From the NCBI GenBank assembly GCA_028688415.1, contig JAQTYF010000001.1, positions 208,627 to 272,626 on the forward strand: 64,000 nt of DNA. The letters run 5' to 3'. Below the pieces are notes generated by a model. The model was not told the DNA's origin, ran no database searches, and saw only the letters and a list, made by a program, of their open reading frames with translations. This document shows, in pieces, positions 557 to 26,380 of the stretch. A program made the translations under genes and the position numbers. The number at the start of each line of letters is the position of its first letter. Within the stretch, counting starts at the first letter, position 1. Origin of the DNA: Candidatus Moraniibacteriota bacterium. Lineage in GTDB: Bacteria > Patescibacteriota > Minisyncoccia > Moranbacterales > UBA1568.

Positions 557-1498
557 ATGGAATTTTTACGGATACTCCGACAGAGTATTTTTGATAGAGA
601 TTTTTATATGAAAGCAAAAGATACTCATTTTAGCGGAGCATTGAAGCAGTATACACTGTTTATAGTGTGTATCGCTTGTATTACTGCAATATTTTTCTTT
701 TCTTTCCTTTTTGTTTCTTTGTCACAAATGAGAGAAATGGGGGATGTTCGCGCTCAAGCACTGTCTCTCTATCCTGATGAACTCGTGCTCCGTTTCGAGA
801 ATGGTCAAGCGACTTCCAATGTCGCAGAACCGTATGTGATCCCGGTACCAGCATCGTTTGGTATACAAAATTCTGACAATCTGCTTGTTATCAATACTCA
901 GGGGACAGTGACGCCAGCTGATTTCGATCTCTATAATACATCCGCCATTCTCGGAGGTGACGCCGTGTGGGTCTATGATCGAAAGAAAGAGAAGATTGAG
1001 ATTCAGAAATTTGATATGTTTGGAAAAGAAGCTGTTGTCGTGAATGAACAGAAAGTAGGAGAGTGGATAGATATCGCTTGGAACATAGGGAAGAAAGTGT
1101 TGGTTGCTTCCTTCATATTCGTACCGTTTTTCATTTTCTCTTTTCTCTGGTTCAGTTATCTGACATACCTCCTCTTTGGCGCAGTCATTATTTGGGTTGT
1201 TGCCAAGGTACGTAAAGCCGATCTCTCGTACAGCCAGTCATACAAAATCGGTCTCTATCTTATTACGCTTCCAATTCTCTACAATACATTGACAGTTGCT
1301 TCTCTCTCCTCCCTTCGTTTTCCTTTTGCATTTACGATTATTCTCGCTATCGTAGCGTATGCAAATCTGACCCCGACAAGCACCATTTCAATCAGTGAAG
1401 AAAAAACAGACACACCCAAAGAAGACGAAGGAGTGATCAAAATTGAAAACATCGAAGAAAAAAAGGATCTGAATATTGAATCAAATAAAGAATTATAA
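557..1498 (+). CDS. polytopic membrane protein, DUF1189-like
   Basis: Long ORF (ORF track starts at TTG 476; ATG at 557 chosen). Several hydrophobic segments, a central soluble region and an acidic C-terminal tail. Start codon uncertain. Confidence 0.5.
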   Translation: MEFLRILRQSIFDRDFYMKAKDTHFSGALKQYTLFIVCIACITAIFFFSFLFVSLSQMREMGDVRAQALSLYPDELVLRFENGQATSNVAEPYVIPVPASFGIQNSDNLLVINTQGTVTPADFDLYNTSAILGGDAVWVYDRKKEKIEIQKFDMFGKEAVVVNEQKVGEWIDIAWNIGKKVLVASFIFVPFFIFSFLWFSYLTYLLFGAVIIWVVAKVRKADLSYSQSYKIGLYLITLPILYNTLTVASLSSLRFPFAFTIILAIVAYANLTPTSTISISEEKTDTPKEDEGVIKIENIEEKKDLNIESNKEL

Positions 1499-1533
1499 GA
1501 AAATCAGGAATATTCAAATTATTTTTTATCTTT

Positions 1534-4105: not shown

Positions 4106-4327
4106 AGGAAATACTTTTGAGATCCGAATGCTTTTTCTTAGGTTTTTTATATTGACTTCTTTTATTCTTTGAGGATATACTCTATGGAAGTTTGATCATG
4201 CTTACCTAGGGATCCAAATGAAAGGGTTCTTGTGGTAGAGCGGGATCGTCCTGTTTTATCCTGCTGGGCGACTGGCGGGCTGGTGAGCGATCACCTTCAG
4301 TTCTTTTACAACCGGAGTATTTTTATC

Positions 4328-5383
4328 ATGAAAACCTTTGAAATTGGCAAGTTGTTTCACGAAGGGAATGTCCAGACCTCCGTCACTTTGATGGATTTCC
4401 CTTATCTGATCCCTGATGCGTTTTATGAGACACGAGAGGGGAAGAAGCTTTCTATCCCTCTGTTACGCTCGATACTGAGCGAGTATTCCAAGAACTATAT
4501 CCTCCTTAAAAAAGAAAGTGGCAAGGAAGAACGTCTTTTGGAACGAGCCTTGAAAACGCTGGAAACAGCGAATCACTATGAGTCGGCCTGCCCGAATGGC
4601 TTTTTCGGTCTTGACGGACTCGAACAGTCATTGAAAGATTTGGACGATCCCACAAAACATGTCATGATCTCGGCTGGTATGAGCAATGTCACATTCAAAC
4701 TTTTGCGTTTGGGTGACTGTATTGCCATGTTACCAACTGACTCACGAGGAGAAAATCATCAGGATGCAATCGGTATCCTCGACGACATAATGGAAAGAAC
4801 AAATGGAGTGATGAATCTCATACATTTCGTTCGGCAATATGGATTTTCTATTGTTCCAAACTATGCCCCAGATGGGAACAATGGCGGTATCTTTGATGTG
4901 GCCGACGAAATAGCGAAATGGCGTGTACATGCGCCTCTGATCAATTGGGTGGACGCGGAAGTTTTTACCCAGAGCCTGTCGGAAGATTTCATATCGAGTT
5001 CTGATAATGATGACGGTGGTGTCGTCATCGGATCGTACGGAGATATGGACGTTTTGATGAGAATCAAGTCCGCGAAAAACTCAAAAGACGACATGGCCTG
5101 GCGACGTGGATATATCCGGAGCCAGACGGCTACGAGAATCGTTTTCGAGTCGAATCATCGGTACATGATCGAAGTGGAGTATTTCTTGAGAGTCAAGAAT
5201 CTTCGGCCTTGTTGGCTTACCGCTGTCTCGCTGAAACACAGTCTTGATTACGGTACAGAACAACACTGCATGGCAGCCGTTGCACGAATGATGTATGCTG
5301 GACTTTATAGCCGTTCTTTTGAACAAACAATGAGTCACAATTCCCATCTTCGTTCATTCGTCATTTGTACTGTCTGTCGATAA
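4328..5383 (+). CDS. hypothetical protein
   Basis: Long ORF (track start GTG 4232; ATG 4328 MKTFEIGK chosen). No recognised domain. Confidence 0.45.
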   Translation: MKTFEIGKLFHEGNVQTSVTLMDFPYLIPDAFYETREGKKLSIPLLRSILSEYSKNYILLKKESGKEERLLERALKTLETANHYESACPNGFFGLDGLEQSLKDLDDPTKHVMISAGMSNVTFKLLRLGDCIAMLPTDSRGENHQDAIGILDDIMERTNGVMNLIHFVRQYGFSIVPNYAPDGNNGGIFDVADEIAKWRVHAPLINWVDAEVFTQSLSEDFISSSDNDDGGVVIGSYGDMDVLMRIKSAKNSKDDMAWRRGYIRSQTATRIVFESNHRYMIEVEYFLRVKNLRPCWLTAVSLKHSLDYGTEQHCMAAVARMMYAGLYSRSFEQTMSHNSHLRSFVICTVCR

Positions 5384-8837: not shown

Positions 8838-8881
8838 GGGGTAAATGCAGGTCCCGGGTTCGATTCCCGGTCTTGGCTCCA
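8838..8881 (+). pseudogene. tRNA 3'-half fragment (anticodon-loop 3' side, T-arm, acceptor 3' strand, CCA)
   Basis: GGTAAATGCAGGTCCCGGGTTCGATTCCCGGTCTTGGCTCCA parallels the 3' half of the adjacent tRNA-Thr, but there is no D-arm or anticodon-stem 5' side. Possible old att remnant. Confidence 0.5.
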
Positions 8882-9024
8882 TAAATAAGTTCTCCAGTTT
8901 TCCCTGCCCTCCGCCAGCTGGTGGATTGGAGGGGATTCTGATCATCGGCTCAAGAAGAATAAAGCAGGTTTCGATAGACCTGTTTTTCTTTTTGTGAAAT
9001 GAGAAATATGGTATACTAAAATAT

Positions 9025-10117
9025 ATGAGTACTATGAAAGAAAAAATAGCAGTTCTTCAACAAAAACTCCTGCAGTTGCAGGAATGTCTTTGACTTCGAG
9101 AAAAAAGATATTCGTAGAAAGGAGCTCCGTCTGCAGAGCGAAGCGCCAGGATTCTGGAACGATCCTCAGTCGGCTGGTCTCGTGATGCAAGAACTCGAAT
9201 CCCTCGAGAAAGAACGTTCTTCTTTTGCACAGTTTGAAAAAACTGTCGGAGAGACGAATGACATTGCATCCCTCGAGAATCTCTCTTCGGAAGATGAAAA
9301 AACGCTTGAGGAGGAATATCTCTCGATAGAACAGACATTCGCAGAGTGGGAGCTCAAAACCTTGCTCGGAGGAGAATATGACGATAAAGACGCTCTCCTG
9401 ACTGTCCGGAGTGGGGCAGGCGGTGTCGATGCCCAGGACTGGGCTGAGATGCTGTTTCGTATGTACTCTGCGTATGCGAGCAAACAGGGATGGAAGACAC
9501 GTCTCCTCGATGAATCTCGTGGCACTGAAGCAGGGATTAAAAGCGCCACTATGGAAATAAGCGGGAGATATGCATACGGATATCTCCATGGAGAAGCAGG
9601 CATTCACCGTCTCGTGAGACTCTCGCCATTTAATGCGAATAGTCTGAGACAAACATCGTTTGCCTCCATCGAAGTGATGCCGATCATCGATGAGAAAGGA
9701 ATGATCCCGATCAAGTCCGATGAACTCCGTATTGATACGTATCGATCCTCAGGTGCTGGTGGACAGAATGTCAACAAGACAGAGAGTGCTGTCCGTATCA
9801 CTCATATCCCGACAGGTCTCGTCGCTGCATGTCAGAGCGAGCGTTCTCAGCTCCAGAACAAAGAAGAAGCGATGAAGATGCTTCGTTCAAAAATGGTACA
9901 AAAACACATTGAAGAACAAGCGGAAGCAAAACGGAAACTCCGAGGTGATTTCAAGAGTGCTGGCTGGAGCAATCAGATCCGCTCATATGTCATCCATCCC
10001 TATACCCTCGTCAAGGATCATCGTACCGATACAGAAACGAGCGATACGACCAGAGTGCTCGGTGGTGATCTGCAGATGTTTATCGAAAGCGAACTCCGTT
10101 ACTTACAACTGTATTAA
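9025..10117 (+). CDS. prfB: peptide chain release factor 2, with programmed +1 ribosomal frameshift
   Basis: Frame 0 from ATG 9025 (or 9034) reads ...LQLQECL then in-frame TGA at 9091. The +1 frame continues DFEKKDIRR... into the 311-aa ORF containing SPF and GGQ motifs. Confidence 0.9.
9079..9094 (+). promoter_or_regulatory. prfB autoregulatory +1 frameshift site (CTT TGA C with upstream SD-like AGGA)
   Basis: cAGGAatgtCTTTGAC; identical slippery/stop context to the classical RF2 frameshift site. Confidence 0.8.
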
Positions 10118-12814: not shown

Positions 12815-12885
12815 TGGGGTGTGGCCAAGCGGTAAGGCAATGGGTTCTGGTCCCATGATCCTAGGTTCGAATCCTAGCACCCCAG
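12815..12885 (+). tRNA. tRNA-Gln (anticodon CUG)
   Basis: Acceptor TGGGGTG/CACCCCA (U1-A72 as in bacterial tRNA-Gln), anticodon arm ATGGG-TTCTGGT-CCCAT, T-arm CTAGGTTCGAATCCTAG, discriminator G. Confidence 0.85.
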
Positions 12886-14409
12886 CATTGTTGAACGATG
12901 AGAGGCGAGAGCCTCTTTTTTCGTTTCTATAGCGAGGGAATTCAGTTCGAAGGTACGTTTTCTCTCTGTCAGAGTCTCCACATCTTCACGAAGCCATAAG
13001 AAAGGATCATTAAGGTCGAAATACGCTAGCTTGCGGTCTTTCACGCCAATGTTCGAAGTGAAAACTTCTACGATATCTCGTTTCATTTCTTTCGTGCCGA
13101 GATTGAAGAGATTATGCGCTGTTTTTATGAAACGAACAGCCTGCTCGATCTCGTCTCCAAGTTCTGCAGTAGTATGTTTTGCGTTAGAGAGCTTCTCTTC
13201 GATATTTGCTTCTTCCATTGTGATTTCTGAATACTTTCTATCGTATATTTCTTTCGGCAGAGCATTATCGATAAACTTCTCGACCAGCGACTCTTTGCGT
13301 CGGCGTGTGTCTTCGAGTATATGGAGTAATCGCGCCTCCGTTTCTTTCGCGAGATTGTCTTCGCTTCTCAATTTCTCTTTCGATGCATCCACGATCAAAT
13401 CCAGTATCTCATCATCGAAATGAATCTTTTTCAATTCTTCTGCAATATGTTTCTCCAAATCTTCCTCTCGTGTGTATGGCTGAGAACATTGTCTCACGCC
13501 TTTGGACTTGGTACACCGATAATATGTGTGGCCTTTTTGTATTTCTGCCGTCACCTTGAGTCCACATTCACCGCATACGAGAAAGCCTCGATAGGTGAAC
13601 AATCGTTTCGTATGTTGCGTTTGCCATTTCTTTGGTTCGAGTCGTTTCGTCGCTTCTTCGAAAGTAGCGAGTGAAATGATTGGTTCGTGAACACCGTTAT
13701 ATACCTGTCCTTTCCATTTGAAGAGCCCAGCATAGACTGGATTCGTGAGGATTCTATACACAGTGCTTTTGCCGACCCTGTTGCCGAGACGTGAACGGAA
13801 TCCCTCTTCGTAGAGGGTATTCGCGATACTCTCAACAGAGAGATTATCCGAAATATAGAGATCAAAGACACGTAAAACAAAAGGGACGGCTTGTGGATCC
13901 TGAATCATCGCTTTTGTCTTATAGTCCGACATATAGCCGAAAGGACGTGGCCCAGGATATTCGCCTCGACGTACTTTCTCTGCCAATCCTCGTCTGACAT
14001 TCTTACTCAAATCACGGATGTACTGAGTCGCCATAGAAAACTCGATACTTGCCATCACGACGTTATCTTCTGGATTGTACTCTCGATCAAATGTTCGTAT
14101 CTGTTTGATTGTCTCATTCTGTAACATCCATTTCACCATTCCCTCATCGACAGGATTGCGCGCCAAGCGATCGATTTTCCAACAGAGTACTCCTTGTGCT
14201 TTCCCTTGTTGAATGAATTTCATCATCTCTGCAAAGACTGGTCGTCCGGGAGCTTTCGCAGATTTTGATTCTTGAAAAATTTTGATGACACTCAGACCTT
14301 CGCGTCTTGCGATTTCTTGCATTTCAATAATCTGAGATTGAATAGACAAAGATTGTCGATCTTCACTCTCAGTAGATTTTCTGGCGTAGATGATGTAGTG
14401 CATATTCAT
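12874..14409 (-). CDS. large serine recombinase (integrase)
   Basis: N-terminal resolvase catalytic domain (YARKST...), recombinase domain, zinc-ribbon cysteines (CGECG...CTKSKG) and a coiled-coil C-terminus. Its stop codon overlaps the tRNA-Gln 3' end. Start taken at M26/M28 of the listed ORF. Confidence 0.85.
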   Translation of the reverse strand: MNMHYIIYARKSTESEDRQSLSIQSQIIEMQEIARREGLSVIKIFQESKSAKAPGRPVFAEMMKFIQQGKAQGVLCWKIDRLARNPVDEGMVKWMLQNETIKQIRTFDREYNPEDNVVMASIEFSMATQYIRDLSKNVRRGLAEKVRRGEYPGPRPFGYMSDYKTKAMIQDPQAVPFVLRVFDLYISDNLSVESIANTLYEEGFRSRLGNRVGKSTVYRILTNPVYAGLFKWKGQVYNGVHEPIISLATFEEATKRLEPKKWQTQHTKRLFTYRGFLVCGECGLKVTAEIQKGHTYYRCTKSKGVRQCSQPYTREEDLEKHIAEELKKIHFDDEILDLIVDASKEKLRSEDNLAKETEARLLHILEDTRRRKESLVEKFIDNALPKEIYDRKYSEITMEEANIEEKLSNAKHTTAELGDEIEQAVRFIKTAHNLFNLGTKEMKRDIVEVFTSNIGVKDRKLAYFDLNDPFLWLREDVETLTERKRTFELNSLAIETKKEALASHRSTMLGC

Positions 14410-15551
14410 CAATTGAAAATATATCCGATGAGGAGGAATGTACCAAGACAAAGAAAGTACACAACGATTTCCATTGGACGCCATTTTGAAAAAGGAGGAG
14501 CTCCTTTGTAGCGGAAGTTTTTATGAGATAAATACATATTGCGCAAAACAAAAGGGCACCCTTCGTTGCACACAGATCCTTTCGGACACTGTACGAAGGA
14601 ATGCCCTTTCGTCGGAACAACTAAGAATAGTTGCTCCATGTGTCCGAAATATAAATCTGTGTGCATATACATAGTACAGTATTTTTAGTATTTTCTCCAA
14701 ATCCAAACTCTTTTTTCTCTGCCTCTTCATCGCCCGCGTCGCTTCCGCTCCTTCTTCGCTTCGCTCACTGCCCTGAGCAGGGCAGGCGGGCTTCGTCTCT
14801 GCCAGCTCTCCTCTCTCTACCTCTTCAAACTTCTCCCGACGCCCCCAACAAATGTCAGAGCTCGATTCGGTTTCTGCTTCTCACATCACCTCAGTCTCGC
14901 TCCGTCTTTCTTTCACCCATTATCGTTGTGCTCGGAACCATTCGAACATCGACTGGAATCAGGAGTGCCTCTTGTCCCTCTCCGCAGAAGACTCCTCTTC
15001 CTGACAGTAAGAGGAGACATCTGCTTCGTAATGGTGGACGAGACTGGCACTCCCGACCCATCCGACGTTCGCCTGCCGAGCACAGCAGATTTTATTGCGC
15101 GGAAAAATGAATGACACTCTTTCTCTTCCGACCCGTGTCCTCGTCGATATCAGGGTGGATACCCCCCGGCCACCCTTCCCTGATAGACGAAGGACAAAAC
15201 CGCACTCCCGACAAGCATCGCATAAGTGCAACCCCTATTATGCAACTCTCATCCCAGAGATGAGGTCGCATAATTGGCACTTATGCCGACGCGTATCGGA
15301 GAGGCGGTGGCGGGTCGGTGATGCCCTGTCATACTTTTCGGAGTACTTTCCGCGCACCCGAGACACCGAGCACTTGCATCTTCGCGTCGTTTCTATTGCT
15401 TCCTTTTTGGTGAGAGGAGTGGCTCCTTGCCAAATACCACCACGCCTCACCCGTTCCATTTTTTCCGCCCAGCAGATTTTTCATCCTCTCCATTTTTTCG
15501 CATCTCTTTGTGTTTTTCATTCTTCTTACTTCTTATATTGAAAAAGATTCT

Positions 15552-15689
15552 TTCTTTTTCGATTCGATCGATTTTTCTTTGTTTCGATGTCGTCCTTGTC
15601 GAACGACAACAGAAAAATCATGTGTCGTTCTCTTTTTTCGTTTCTTCTTTTTCGTATTTCTTCTTTTTCGATTCGATCGATTTTTCTTT
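15552..15689. repeat. iteron-like module: two identical 29-bp direct repeats flanking a 14-bp perfect palindrome
   Basis: ttctttttcgattcgatcgatttttcttt at 15552-15580 and 15661-15689. TTGTCGAACGACAA at 15596-15609. A very AT-rich tract follows (15690-15765). Confidence 0.5.
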
Positions 15690-15818
15690 AAATTAAAAAT
15701 TAGAATTACTTTTATTATTTAATTTTTCTTTTTAAATGCTTATTTTTTGTGCTCATTCTTGATACCATTTATTGGTGCAAGATATGCTCTCCGGTCGGTG
15801 TAATTGTTACACCTACCC

Positions 15819-16178
15819 CTATCTTTTCCTTTGTTTGATAAGAAGGATATATCTGTTTACCTTCCGTGAGTTTTTTGATGATCGTTCTACGCGAAGATAC
15901 CCGATTTCTTCTAATTCCCCAATAGCTTTAATGACAGTATTCTTCGCACAATTAGTTTCTGACGCGATTGTTCTTTGTGATGGATGACAATCTTCTTTTC
16001 CAGCGAATGTATGCATGACCAAATTACAATATACCAGTTTCGCTGGTCTAGTGAGCCGTTTGTCCAGAAGCACTTTATGTGGAATCATTGAAAACCCGAT
16101 TTCTCTCCATTTGTCACGAGAGTTTTTGATGTATCCTTCCATGCGATTTCCTCGATTGATTATGTTCTTTATCTCCAT
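15819..16178 (-). CDS. winged-helix HTH protein, phage/plasmid replisome-organizer N-terminal-like
   Basis: LVYCNLVMHTFAGKEDCHPSQRTIASETNCAKNTVIKAIGELEEIGYL matches the replication initiator/replisome organizer HTH pattern. Confidence 0.55.
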   Translation of the reverse strand: MEIKNIINRGNRMEGYIKNSRDKWREIGFSMIPHKVLLDKRLTRPAKLVYCNLVMHTFAGKEDCHPSQRTIASETNCAKNTVIKAIGELEEIGYLRVERSSKNSRKVNRYILLIKQRKR

Positions 16179-16536: not shown

Positions 16537-17667
16537 CTACCTGAAAGTCATGAATATAATATTTTGTTTCTTATCAATCTTAAATTGAAAGTCTTTCAAT
16601 TTTTTATCTCTCTGCAGTTCACCACGGGTATTTTTTACAAAATTAAACCTTTCTGTGTGATTTAATTGCTTGCCAAAATTCACAGTGCTTATATTTAATG
16701 GCTCTTTACGAATATCTACATAGACTGCGTCTATATTTCTCCCATCTCCAAAATTTTTGACAAGACACTCGAGAAGTTTGAATTTTTGTGTATCTTTGCC
16801 ACCAATTTTTATAGCAACTTCTCCTGCTATCTGAAGAAAGCCGATCTTTTCCTTTATAAAACACGTTGGCGCCACCTTCCTTTTTACCGCTTTCATTCCA
16901 ATCTTTTTGAGGAATTTTTTCTGTAAATCAATGCTAACGAAAAAGCGCGATTCATCACGAGCGTTCTTTTCACTGCCGAGGCTATTGATTTTTACATCAC
17001 TGTTTTCTTCAAGCGCTAACATACAATCCAGCAGTCGAAAGTCCTCTCCAAACTCAAAATCTTTTAGTACCAGTCCCTCCCCGTATTTCTCATAGTCCGT
17101 CCGCGCTCTCTTTTCGAAGATTGCCTCATGGTCTGAAAAGTTGAGATATGCAATGTTTACTTTTTGCAGATTGTCTTCAGAAAACGCTTTGGCGTAGCTC
17201 TTAATAAAACTGTGGAGACCGTTTCTTGCTTTCTCTGTCATTGTAATTTTGAAATTAACACCACTAAATAACACGGCGGAAATTTTTTCTTGCTTTTGGA
17301 ACACTTCTTCTAAATCTGTAAGTGTAAATTTATTTTCAATGATTCTTTTTACAGACGTATATTTTTGTAATGGATCAGGATGGCACATTTGATAGAGATG
17401 CTCTTTTATTCCTTTTTTATCAGCATAGAAAAGTCCATATCGGTCAAATTCAAATTGCTTCAATTGTATTCCATAAGCGCTGTTTATTTGCGAGATTGTT
17501 TGAAAGACATAGAGCAGTGCGGGTTTTTTAAAATTAAAGAATTGTATTTCTTCAAAATCAAAACTCTTTTGTTCCCCGTATGGATAGTCGATCAATTTCA
17601 AGATAAGAAATAAAATATCCTCATCAATATAGGCTAATTTTTTTGTTTCTTTGGTGGCGCTTTTCAT
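16537..17667 (-). CDS. hypothetical protein (376 aa) of the mobile element
   Basis: Long ORF, AT-rich, no domain recognised. Its position next to the replication-like HTH and origin-like repeats suggests a replication or maintenance role. Confidence 0.45.
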   Translation of the reverse strand: MKSATKETKKLAYIDEDILFLILKLIDYPYGEQKSFDFEEIQFFNFKKPALLYVFQTISQINSAYGIQLKQFEFDRYGLFYADKKGIKEHLYQMCHPDPLQKYTSVKRIIENKFTLTDLEEVFQKQEKISAVLFSGVNFKITMTEKARNGLHSFIKSYAKAFSEDNLQKVNIAYLNFSDHEAIFEKRARTDYEKYGEGLVLKDFEFGEDFRLLDCMLALEENSDVKINSLGSEKNARDESRFFVSIDLQKKFLKKIGMKAVKRKVAPTCFIKEKIGFLQIAGEVAIKIGGKDTQKFKLLECLVKNFGDGRNIDAVYVDIRKEPLNISTVNFGKQLNHTERFNFVKNTRGELQRDKKLKDFQFKIDKKQNIIFMTFR

Positions 17668-25805: not shown

Positions 25806-25897
25806 ACTATGAATGAAGAGACATTTGAAAAAAGAGGAGAAAAGCTTAATATTAAATAGTCCCGCCGTCCCGCCGAAAATTTTTGGGGGCGAAGCCC

Positions 25898-25954
25898 AAG
25901 CAGGCGGGCAAAAAGGAAGGGGGTTGGGGGGAAGGAATTTTTGCCCGCTTGCTT
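25898..25954. other. 17-bp imperfect stem-loop with a G-tract-rich 23-nt loop
   Basis: AAGCAGGCGGGCAAAAA ... TTTTTGCCCGCTTGCTT with loop GGAAGGGGGTTGGGGGGAAGGAA, in a GC-rich pocket of the AT-rich island. Confidence 0.4.
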
Positions 25955-25992
25955 CCGTTCCTGTTCCGTTTGAGAAAAGGAAAAGTGGATAA

Positions 25993-26265: not shown

Positions 26266-26380
26266 CAAGCTTCTCTATCCGAAGTAATATCAATTCAAGT
26301 CCCTTCCTCTTTTCAATCAAATGTGCAAGAATTGAAGGGTAAAATCCGTTCACAACCGCATCCCTCCACCCCAGCATTGA

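Follow-up and report, generated by a model that had tools for sequence, protein, structure and literature searches.

Between the start of a large serine recombinase gene and a helix-turn-helix (HTH) gene in a Candidatus Moranbacteria genome, the interval at 14490–15800 of the window (the whole 64,000-nucleotide stretch of DNA analysed) had been read from its sequence alone as one GC-rich non-coding region, either a structured non-coding RNA or an elaborate attP or regulatory DNA region, raising the question of what this interval contains and what it does for the mobile element that carries it. A single-feature reading fails, the interval being composed of a small gene, a 124-nt leader RNA, a GC-rich tract and an A-rich repeat region, all read on the minus strand, which is the sense strand of the recombinase. 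On balance, the interval is probably the element's non-coding control module, acting most likely as recombinase-sense RNA. Its parts and the genes at either side are the following.

12874–14403, minus strand: large serine recombinase gene, with its start at 14403 or 14397
14409–14537, minus strand: conserved 42-aa small ORF (MYLSHKNFRYKGAPPFSKWRPMEIVVYFLCLGTFLLIGYIFN), identified by positional and protein-level conservation
14544–14667, minus strand: structured leader RNA, 124 nt, identified from alignments A2 and A4, model R1 and covariation
14668–14682, minus strand: extended -10 promoter-like element (TG at 14678–14677, TACTAT at 14676–14671)
14700–15460, minus strand: tract E, non-coding, GC-rich and purine-rich in the sense direction, identified by composition, fold z = -11 and no coding conservation
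15461–15818, minus strand: region F, A-rich in the sense direction (49% A), with direct repeats
15819–16178, minus strand: gene of a 119-aa HTH_36 protein (Pfam HTH_36, 3.2e-12)

The compositional description given by the sequence-only reading was borne out. The stretch 14700–15460 has 54.5% GC against 33.9% in the rest of the island (0.49–0.55 in 300-nt windows across 14600–15500, compared with 0.29–0.39 deeper in the island), and the reported C/T bias of the plus strand corresponds to a purine-rich minus strand (A.26, C.21, G.33, T.19), a sense composition (G.33, A.26) that resembles that of structured RNAs. Folding of 14690–15520 against shuffles gave -328 kcal/mol for the minus strand (z = -11.0) and -278 kcal/mol for the plus strand (z = -6.05). 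Both hairpins that had been singled out are present: 15220–15229 pairs with 15277–15286 at 10/10 positions, with 15234–15246/15265–15277 nested inside, and arms 14554–14566 and 14593–14606 pair within the hairpin at 14552–14609. Spacers rich in GC, whose co-occurrence with homologous recombinases had been put forward as a point to check, are not the shared trait, as relatives from AT-rich hosts have AT-rich rod hairpins at the same position. No relevant Rfam family matches the region, the Rfam 15 covariance models at gathering score detecting two tRNAs only in the whole window, four chance-level matches at E <= 10 on 14300–16000, and only tRNAs and one LOOT RNA elsewhere in L047 among 15 related loci (families covered include GOLLD, ROOL, OLE, HEARO, group I/II introns, C4, T-box and riboswitches); a literature search found no RNA described for such a locus type.

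The view that no convincing ORF exists in the interval proved wrong for 14409–14537 on the minus strand, where the protein encoded by a 42-codon ORF is conserved across 13 related loci, as ORFs of 31–48 aa at the equivalent position that share [RK]YKG[AS]xP[ILF]W and a hydrophobic helix, or have a variant N-terminus. The product is a membrane-type protein, without a match to any Pfam or PHROGs family. Its stop codon overlaps the recombinase start codon (TGATG), and among the related loci the stop likewise overlaps or sits close to the recombinase start; because of this stop/start overlap, the small ORF may be translationally coupled to the recombinase. A conserved coding frame in homologues, which had been named as the finding that would speak against a non-coding region, was found for this 129-nt ORF and is absent from the GC-rich tract, where tblastx between loci revealed no conserved frame, matches being confined to the leader and falling in several frames.

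The best-supported part of the interval is the leader RNA immediately upstream of the small ORF, for which the following helices were defined.

14665–14655 with 14577–14567, minus strand: leader helix a
14648–14640 with 14589–14580, minus strand: leader helix b
14637–14614, minus strand: leader hairpin c
14606–14593 with 14566–14554, minus strand: predicted terminator stem d/d', with a U tract at 14553–14544 directly after it

Model R1 recovers one copy per locus, on the sense strand only and at the same position, in 15 loci (62–134 bits), and four leader helices have covariation support. Paired cells make up 92% of the leader alignment against 39–50% in slid controls, and 20 pairs are changed on both sides, compared with 1–5 in controls; of 500 leader shuffles, not one attained the observed value for any of four measures, and two did so for a fifth. 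The G-U pairs of the leader are valid on the sense strand only, and its fold z-scores range from -5.2 to -8.2. The proposal of a structured non-coding RNA is upheld here, the hairpin at 14552–14609 being the terminator stem of this covariation-supported leader; for the GC-rich tract it is plausible and stops short of proof. A conserved -10 element lies 6–7 nt ahead of helix a, in the form TGnTAT(T/A/G)AT in most of 14 aligned loci (A2) and TGnTAATAT in most of the distant clade (A6), and would make transcription begin with the opening bases of helix a; it is not called by a sigma-70 scan because it has no -35 hexamer.

Two mutually exclusive folds are available to the leader, as segment d can form part of hairpin e or bind d', and the b'/a' strand can bind a/b or fold back on itself. 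Each fold has a GNRA cap and the two differ by 1–10 kcal/mol, the rod and terminator folds reaching -60.4/-54.4 kcal/mol at this locus and -62.1/-52.3 and -47.8/-47.0 kcal/mol at two others. An attenuator would be expected to show what is seen here, namely two exclusive conserved folds of similar stability sharing nucleotides. The 13-bp d/d' stem, extended by the b'/a' self-hairpin and then followed by UUUUGUUUUG, has the make-up of an intrinsic terminator and is predicted to be a conserved and covarying Rho-independent one, missed by a consensus scan because its loop is beyond the limit of that scan. Together with the U tract, d/d' is the most conserved leader feature in both clades, and its compensatory changes include, for example, GGUUUCUG/CAGAACC to GUCUCUUG/CAAGAGC.

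A role as riboregulator of the recombinase is the most likely one for the leader. Anatomy, conservation, covariation, strand bias and the lack of a coding frame in the tract are direct observations; for transcription, termination, translational coupling and any regulatory input we infer a scheme whereby transcription from the extended -10 element would yield a 124-nt leader able to adopt either fold. Within the rod fold, the 5' strands a and b would pair with b' and a', hairpins c and e would form and GCGA would cap e, permitting transcription to continue through the 42-aa ORF and into the recombinase gene coupled to it in translation; within the terminator fold, d would pair with d', b'/a' would fold back under a GAAA tetraloop next to the U tract, and transcription would stop. 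From this two-fold design it follows that an occupant of the 5' a/b strand would set recombinase expression. Counting against the scheme, the rod is the stabler fold and should be the first to form as the RNA is made, the terminator escaped the consensus scan, and no sequence complementary to the leader a/b strand was found elsewhere in the window; no candidate for a sensed signal (ligand, protein, tRNA, ribosome or RNA) was found for the leader.

The same leader design precedes distant recombinases, including those of filamentous-phage-like prophages, and is common to recombinases only 36–39% identical. Within this distant clade, the complementarity of d' extends into an A/U-rich stretch ending at the recombinase AUG, such that terminator-fold pairing would also cover the recombinase start region. 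Distant leader-sharing recombinases adjoin an HUH rolling-circle Rep (PF23343 REP_ORF2-G2P) with the motifs FLTLTF, HYH and YxxK, and one IMG/VR contig of recombinase relatives also has Zot, a filamentous-phage hallmark; Rep and Zot were seen in the distant clade only, not in close-clade loci. With the single recombinase sequence as query, one distant locus was recovered from the genome collection and none from the viral collection.

Terminator/antiterminator leaders, including riboswitch platforms and protein- or RNA-controlled attenuators, have the same layout of promoter, two-fold leader and genes, and one of their folds is likewise a GC-rich hairpin with a U tract; the leader described here differs in having no recognisable ligand-binding domain, T-box feature or binding-protein site, and in an antiterminator that is an unusually long rod of 20–40 bp closing the whole leader. 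Control of an integration or lifestyle gene by an element-borne structured RNA would be shared with lambda sib/RNase III retroregulation of int, P4 CI RNA and P1 c4 RNA, and the long perfect leader rod would be a plausible RNase III substrate. The lambda sib site is, however, located 3' of int whereas this leader is 5' of the recombinase, neither the C4 family nor another Rfam family matched, and a search of the window for a complementary partner acting in trans found none. Large serine recombinases are widely used for genome engineering; to our knowledge, their natural control has been described mainly at the protein level, and we know of no such leader described for any of them. The leader is a candidate new RNA family with good covariation support, occurring in filamentous-phage-like prophages and defence-carrying islands of poorly understood, mostly uncultivated bacteria, and offers a testable handle on the timing of integration and excision of these elements.

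The element itself is approximately 13.5 kb long and is integrated at the tRNA-Gln gene (12815–12886) of the Candidatus Moranbacteria genome, with the recombinase stop codon overlapping the tRNA-Gln 3' end. The recombinase is 100% identical to a Candidatus Moranbacteria protein with Resolvase, Recombinase and Zn_ribbon_recom domains, and matches a PHROGs integrase family. A 13-nt att core repeat, CACCCCAGCATTG, is present at 12877–12889 and 26367–26379, just past the 3' end of the recombinase gene and hence at the opposite end from 14490–15800. Searches for a Rep, relaxase or Zot were negative in the island and in L002, L003, L087 and L094. The island also encodes a 376-aa core protein with only three homologues, without a match in Pfam, PHROGs or PDB sequence searches and with an unusable AlphaFold model (pLDDT 47.7); profile comparison with the G2P Rep indicated no relation.

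Upstream of the leader, tract E comprises long rod hairpins separated by shorter conserved blocks.

15199–15308, minus strand: rod hairpin H1, 110 nt, identified by self-complementarity, whose core is the hairpin at 15220–15286
15136–15196, minus strand: hairpin H2, with an upper part identical in the three related loci that cover it
15085–15135, minus strand: conserved AT-rich block, from alignment to L006 and L093
14927–15084, minus strand: rod hairpin H3, 158 nt, identified by self-complementarity and hypervariable, in the middle of the tract
14715–14800, minus strand: conserved block H4, consisting of GCCCGCCUGCCCUG...CAGGGCAG...GCGGGC and then GA-rich repeats

The rods of the tract (110–170 nt, long and imperfect) are orientation-specific, being stabler on the sense strand: sense and antisense folds reach -64.8 and -53.6 kcal/mol for H1, -33.5 and -27.4 kcal/mol for H2, and -88.6 and -75.8 kcal/mol for H3, and across 26 rods the sums are -1253 and -1116 kcal/mol, with 67 and 48 G-U pairs. 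H1 bears the motif UUAUGCGAYGC, an 11-mer confined to tract E in the sense direction and present in the window and in L003, L007 and L093. The AT-rich block holds a weak promoter-like match, GTGTCA-17-TAAAAT at 15117–15089, which is doubtful as an internal promoter, the -10 hexamer not being kept in L006 or L093. A weak, non-significant CRISPR-DR28 match was obtained in H4 (E = 1.3), and k-mer enrichment in the tract was set aside as a mere reflection of its purine and pyrimidine arms.

A tract of 0.6 to 1.5 kb occupies the equivalent position in L002, L003, L007–L009, L012, L014, L015, L017, L087 and L094. Homologues of H1 in L003 and L007 carry compensatory changes (AAGUGC/GCACUU to UAGAGG/CCUCUA), as do the repeat hairpins of L003/L007, and such changes are also seen between L014 and L017. 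The H2 upper stem and loop (TATCAGGGAAGGGTGGCCGGGGGGTATCCACCCTGATA) are identical between the window and L093, and the L006 contig, which starts inside H2, matches over the covered part except for one extra G; the H2 base stem differs and yet stays paired (GUCCU.CGUC/GACG.AGGAC to GCGGUCGU/ACGACCGC, read by eye). The stretch around the AT-rich block is 92.6% identical to L006 (15171–15092) and 80% identical to L093 (15206–15097), the rods next to it cannot be aligned, and H4 is ~90% identical to L006 (counted from the alignment) and lies inside a 66% alignment with L093. H3 cannot be aligned with L006, where the equivalent stretch still folds (z = -7.1). No other copies of tract E or H3, as a MITE-like origin would imply, were found in the window or the fetched loci, and neither a phage DNA search with the tract nor a viral scan with the conserved H2 loop sequence gave a match. 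In relatives, the stretches between the short conserved blocks are filled by unrelated rods.

Support for conserved folding is uneven. Excess folding of the first 600 nt varies among relatives (z of -0.6 in L002, -2.9 in L003 and -4.3 in L007), conserved structure was detected in only some alignment windows of L003/L007, and whole-tract pair mapping from L003 to L007 gave 26 double changes that kept pairing and 20 that broke it. Each tract type has only two or three alignable sequences, covariation being seen in individual hairpins. The tract cannot be aligned with L087, though the leader and recombinase region aligns at 67% nucleotide identity.

A second and less certain claim is that tract E may be a 0.76-kb structured RNA upstream of the leader, with a core consisting of the UUAUGCGAYGC motif, H2, the AT-rich block and H4, and exchangeable long rods between them. 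It would probably be co-transcribed with the upstream HTH operon, or read into the leader; the flanking genes are co-directional, and the stretch from the HTH gene to the leader showed no terminator-like site. That the tract represents an undescribed class of structured non-coding RNA of 0.8–1.5 kb, or a cis-acting single-stranded DNA element, specific to one family of small integrative islands of Moranbacteria and related bacteria, is a tentative proposal with a low probability, in which a small conserved core would be combined with exchangeable rods carrying element-specific information; one example would be a Rep-less defence island replicated or packaged by filamentous phages that share its recombinase and leader. 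GOLLD, ROOL and OLE resemble tract E in being hundreds of nucleotides long, GC-elevated, non-coding and strongly folded, and such large ornate RNAs commonly reside close to tRNA genes in prophages or mobile elements. Their Rfam models, however, miss the window and the 15 loci, and tract E consists mainly of rods with a small conserved core. If functional, the tract would be among the larger bacterial non-coding structured elements, with an unusual combination of conserved core and swappable rods.

A rather unlikely alternative, and the one that survives best, is that the rods act as single-stranded DNA, in the manner of rolling-circle single-strand origins or of the packaging-signal and minus-strand-origin hairpins of the filamentous-phage intergenic region, which could let a Rep-less island replicate or be packaged with filamentous-phage help. 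Known elements of this kind, like the tract, consist of serial hairpins that are long, imperfect, orientation-specific and poorly conserved in sequence, and single-strand origins are likewise swapped as cassettes, as the rods are between their conserved flanks. The sense polarity of the tract equals the plus-strand polarity of filamentous phages, in which the plus strand corresponds to the sense strand, and the Rep and Zot genes beside distant leader-sharing recombinases point the same way. Against this, searches of the island and four related loci revealed no Rep, relaxase or Zot, although a helper might act in trans, the 376-aa core protein shows no relation to the G2P Rep, the filamentous-phage-like relatives are without a comparable tract, and the purine-rich strand bias is shared with neighbouring sense-strand genes. 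At 0.8–1.5 kb, the tract is also several times longer than known single-strand origins and the Ff intergenic region. It counts in favour of this alternative that sequence on its own does not discriminate folds of RNA from those of single-stranded DNA, a point also made in PMC5737381.

Less probable again is that tract E is without specific function, a spacer prone to hairpins or a passive insulator that keeps the upstream operon apart from a tightly controlled recombinase gene, with palindromes that arose by local inverted duplication and later decayed. Very fast sequence turnover, as seen in the comparison with L087, central rods that are non-homologous among close relatives, the length range of 0.6 to 1.5 kb and the weak excess folding in some relatives would all suit such a spacer. 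Nevertheless, all close-clade loci retain the tract, and their genomes are, as usual for this bacterial group, small and densely packed with genes; blocks of 80–93% identity, the upper part of H2 and the shared 11-mer survive amid diverged flanks; and compensatory substitutions, along with a G-U bias towards the sense strand, point to selection for folding as a single strand.

Region F, downstream of the HTH gene, contains two direct repeats.

15547–15580 and 15656–15689, minus strand: 34-nt direct repeats containing TCGATCGAATCGA, 94% identical

By eye, in L007 and L087 the sequence following the HTH gene again contains motifs of the GAATCGATCG type, and the repeats are putative binding sites for the HTH protein. 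Regions F and E might together form the replication origin of the excised element, with the F repeats bound by the HTH_36 protein, E supplying a ColE1-type pre-primer RNA region that is G-rich and highly structured and the fast divergence of E reflecting incompatibility specificity, a combination that we regard as improbable. In its favour, the domain with which phage replication initiators bind origins is the one matched by the HTH_36 protein, several loci have direct repeats with TCGATCGAATCGA-type motifs directly downstream of its gene, and the sense strand is rich in G, quadruplex-like G runs occurring in L002, L087 and L007. Such runs are nevertheless absent from some tract types. The match to PHROGs replication-initiation families is restricted to residues of about 25–115, so that the 119-aa protein is equivalent to no more than the winged-helix domain at the N-terminus of phage replication initiators and DnaD-like loaders, is without the C-terminal part of the matched initiator profiles, and may be a plain regulator. 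Long, structured, G-rich non-coding regions by replication functions are known from ColE1 RNA II and from RNA-based prophage origins (Wetzel et al. 2020, PMC7157519), whereas E has yielded neither a conserved promoter nor an overlapping antisense regulator nor a hybrid-forming site.

The region adjoins the recombinase gene and is rich in inverted repeats, but it is very improbable that it is an attP, another double-stranded recombinase site or the source of a recombinase guide RNA, given that the att cores sit at the far, 3' end of the recombinase gene, that the region has no meaningful match to either att site (the sole exact att-flank match >10 nt is a T-rich low-complexity 16-mer), that no guide-RNA loops complementary to attL or attR were found in it, that G-U pairing on one strand only speaks against a duplex DNA site and that the recombinase has the usual protein domains for DNA recognition. 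The IS110 bridge RNA is likewise a structured non-coding RNA immediately upstream of a recombinase gene in a mobile element, differing from the present case in that the recombinase here is a canonical large serine recombinase and the leader is conserved, not programmable.

The annotation of the region is corrected accordingly: gene callers put spurious ORFs of 150–280 aa on the GC-rich tract, in place of which the interval carries the conserved 42-aa gene.

The interval 14490-15800, between a large serine recombinase gene and an HTH gene, is best supported as a control module of several parts that works on the recombinase-sense (minus) strand, the clean result being a covariation-supported recombinase leader together with a small gene missed by the sequence-only reading, whose observations were largely correct and whose interpretation was correct in part.

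Features of the module and its surroundings
12815-12886, plus: tRNA-Gln
12874-14403, minus: large serine recombinase, its stop overlapping the tRNA-Gln 3′ end
14409-14537, minus: 42-codon ORF, flanked by the conserved 130 nt and the start of the recombinase gene
14544-14667, minus: leader RNA (alignments A2 and A4)
14700-15460, minus: tract E, containing the four blocks that follow
15084-14927, minus: H3, 158 nt (self-comparison)
15196-15136, minus: H2 (self-comparison)
15308-15199, minus: H1, 110 nt, whose core is the hairpin 15220-15286
within tract E, minus: H4, a smaller block
15461-15818: region F, A-rich on the sense strand, with two 34-nt direct repeats containing TCGATCGAATCGA
15819-16178, minus: 119-aa HTH_36 protein, beyond the interval
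beyond the HTH_36 gene, minus: 57-aa ORF, then a 376-aa protein of unknown family (16537-17667)
deeper in the island, plus: excisionase-like HTH_17 gene
deeper in the island, plus: defence-type cargo (EcoRI-like methylase, GmrSD/HNH, HerA-like ATPase)

The window belongs to a Candidatus Moranbacteria (candidate phyla radiation) genome; a 939-kb contig with that annotation encodes a protein matching the recombinase at 100% identity. An integrated element of ~13.5 kb at tRNA-Gln has as its boundaries the two copies of a 13-nt direct repeat, CACCCCAGCATTG (12877-12889 and 26367-26379). This puts the att core past the 3′ end of the recombinase gene, and the proposal that the interval is an elaborate attP region is rejected by this direct test. 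Related loci likewise have a tRNA, on the opposite strand, at the 3′ end of the recombinase gene or overlapping it. Within the module the 376-aa core protein is conserved, its identity to the counterparts from related loci L002 and L003 being 27% and 22%; it has no match in Pfam, PHROGs or PDB and three homologues only in a large protein database. A second GC-rich hairpin region, GCAAGCAGGCGGGCAAAAA...TTTTTGCCCGCTTGCTT with G runs on its flanks, is located near the far end of the island (25860-25960).

Related loci (94, labelled L) were gathered from a protein search, contig look-ups and one metagenome scan. In every relative with at least ~47% recombinase identity and sufficient upstream DNA, the order HTH gene, 0.6-1.8 kb with few gene calls, recombinase is constant; GC content is raised across this stretch in L002, L003, L007 (up to 0.79), L087 and L094, with a weaker rise in L008, L009, L014 and L015. 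Gene callers place ORFs of 150-280 aa on either strand of the related tracts; tblastx between loci identified no conserved reading frame in them, leading to rejection of a coding role for tract E, and the matches, limited to the last ~130 nt and spread over several frames, therefore reflect DNA-level similarity. The earlier statement that the region holds no convincing ORF fails for 14409-14537, where a frame is conserved: counterparts of 31-48 aa occur in 13 other loci, sharing a hydrophobic helix that is preceded either by [RK]YKG[AS]xP[ILF]W or by a variant N-terminus. The stop codon of the small ORF overlaps the start codon of the recombinase gene or is near it; the junction reads TGATG in the window and ATGA in L007. 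This suggests that the two genes are translationally coupled.

Ahead of the small ORF and recombinase gene sits the leader, composed of helix a (11 bp), helix b (8-9 bp), hairpin c, a segment d pairing with d′ directly 3′ of a′, and the U tract UUUUGUUUUG; d/d′ corresponds to the hairpin at 14552-14609 which, like that at 15220-15286, was correctly recognised from sequence. Covariation is extensive, with 92% of cells paired (39-50% when partners were slid) and both-side changes in 20 of 39 pairs as against 1-5 in controls; among 500 shuffles the observed value was reached by none on four measures and by two on the fifth. G-U pairs occur only on the recombinase-sense strand, and in each close locus the covariance model recovers a single copy, on the sense strand, scoring 62-134 bits. 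An extended -10 element, TGnTATTAT, is conserved 6-7 nt upstream of helix a, by which the leader appears to form the 5′ end of a transcript of its own.

The minimum-energy fold is an a/b/c rod with a local hairpin e capped by GCGA, while forcing d/d′ yields a continuous terminator hairpin, 1-10 kcal/mol less stable, in which the b′/a′ strand is self-folded under a GAAA loop. The two folds are mutually exclusive, because a′ abuts d′ while d sits inside the rod and because hairpin e and d/d′ share d; with their similar stability, this gives the leader the anatomy of a bistable terminator/antiterminator, with termination predicted. No sequence complementary to the leader was found elsewhere in the window, and the interval matched no Rfam family at gathering or permissive thresholds; the leader is an RNA motif new to Rfam but of a known kind, most likely a terminator/antiterminator riboregulator.

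Weak model matches at the same relative position, next to recombinases of 36-39% identity, led to a second leader clade (L038, L044, L045, L047, L048, L050, L051, L059, L071, L073, L074, L076 and three IMG/VR contigs). The design is the same, comprising an extended -10, a covarying rod, the core UUGUCCCCAAAAAGGGGCG, and d′ followed by a U tract; the leader ends ~20 nt before the recombinase AUG, small ORF and tract are both absent, and d′ complementarity continues into an A/U-rich stretch ending at the AUG. An HUH rolling-circle Rep (PF23343, REP_ORF2-G2P; motifs FLTLTF, HYH and YxxK) is encoded immediately upstream in both loci examined, L047 (2957-3844) and L059 (3003-3839), and in L089 (IMG/VR, 6392 nt) a REP_ORF2-G2P rolling-circle Rep is joined by Zot and a large serine recombinase, the leader design lying between Rep and recombinase in all three. 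The adjacency of Rep and recombinase, with Zot on one viral contig, indicates that these distant recombinase relatives belong to filamentous-phage-like prophages. Besides its Rep gene, leader and recombinase, L047 carries a LOOT RNA (RF03000, 82.7 bits) at 1405-1530 (-), ~2.3 kb upstream of the leader.

Tract E is real and unusual. The compositional claim was borne out: GC is 0.49-0.55 over 14600-15500 against 0.29-0.39 deeper in the island, and the minus strand of 14700-15460 is purine-rich (A.26, C.21, G.33, T.19). The flagged interval is more stable than dinucleotide shuffles (z = -11.0 on the minus strand versus -6.05 on the plus), and self-comparison resolves tract E into long imperfect rod hairpins, with no further copies in the window. 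Two-tier rods of 110-170 nt occupy the same position in all related loci and are AT-rich in AT-rich hosts; the feature common to the loci is the rods, not GC content. Summed over 26 rods, folding energy is -1253 kcal/mol sense versus -1116 antisense, with 67 versus 48 G-U pairs, the largest differences falling in rods closest to the leader.

Compared with L006 and L093, whose recombinases are 74% and 60% identical, the stretch of H2 and an AT-rich block is 80-93% identical; the upper part of H2 shows no difference wherever covered except for one extra G in L006, and H4 shares ~90% identity with L006. In place of H3 and most of H1 these relatives have unrelated sequence that still folds (z = -7.1), and L087, with 67% nucleotide identity across leader and recombinase, has an unalignable tract. 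Compensatory changes were found in H1 (window versus L003/L007), in duplicated L003/L007 hairpins (GCGGAGA/UCUCCGC to GCGUGGUCC/GGAUCAUGC or GCGCUCCCC/GGGGGGCGC), between L014 and L017, and at the H2 base (window versus L093), and the 11-mer UUAUGCGAYGC, always in sense orientation, is restricted to such tracts and present in two types of them. Whole-tract tests were mixed: the fold z-scores of relatives run from -0.6 to -4.3, significance for conserved structure is limited to some of the L003/L007 alignment windows, and L003 pairs mapped onto L007 spoke neither for nor against a shared fold.

The suggestion of a structured non-coding RNA is thus upheld by covariation for the leader, and is the favoured reading for tract E, as a putative RNA in which exchangeable rods accompany a small conserved core, because no terminator-like site separates the co-directional flanking genes, the composition is purine-rich in the manner of structured RNA, G-U pairs are commoner on the sense strand, and the island shows no visible route to single-stranded DNA. 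That last point weighs against a single-strand origin or packaging signal acting as single-stranded DNA, a reading kept alive by the link of this recombinase family to rolling-circle, filamentous-phage-like elements; RNA and single-stranded DNA motifs are inseparable by sequence alone (PMC5737381). An RNA-primed origin (compare PMC7157519) is possible for the interval, as is a functionless hairpin-prone spacer for tract E. A guide-RNA role is rejected, the sole exact match above 10 nt between tract E and the att sites being a T-rich low-complexity 16-mer.

The match of the HTH_36 protein to phage replication initiators is confined to their N-terminal origin-binding domain, and GAATCGATCG-type motifs similar to those of region F follow the HTH gene in L007 and L087 (read by eye); together with the region F repeats, this makes region F a plausible binding region, operator or origin, for the protein.

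Repeated hairpins in L002 (~4255-4275, ~4660-4680) and L087 (~8868-8888) have covarying stems (CCCCGAG/CUCGGGG, CCCCGAU/AUCGGGG) under the same loop, UAUGCC, the reverse complement of GGCAUA at the H1 base in the window, L003 and L007. L087 and L088, the same island in different host strains, are identical across ~10 kb apart from eight substitutions (G>T, C>A or G>C only) that cluster within an 82-nt stretch of quadruplex-like G runs in the tract (9154-9235), which could be sequencing error in G-rich DNA or genuine local hypervariation. On the sense strand of the window, the motif AAAATCTGCTG(G/T)GC occurs twice, 387 nt apart, at the start of the GC-rich tract (15480-15467) and directly before rod H3 (15093-15080), and a perfect 10-nt long-range complement, UGCGCGGAAA/UUUCCGCGCA (15347-15356 with 15096-15105), would close H1 and H2 into one domain.
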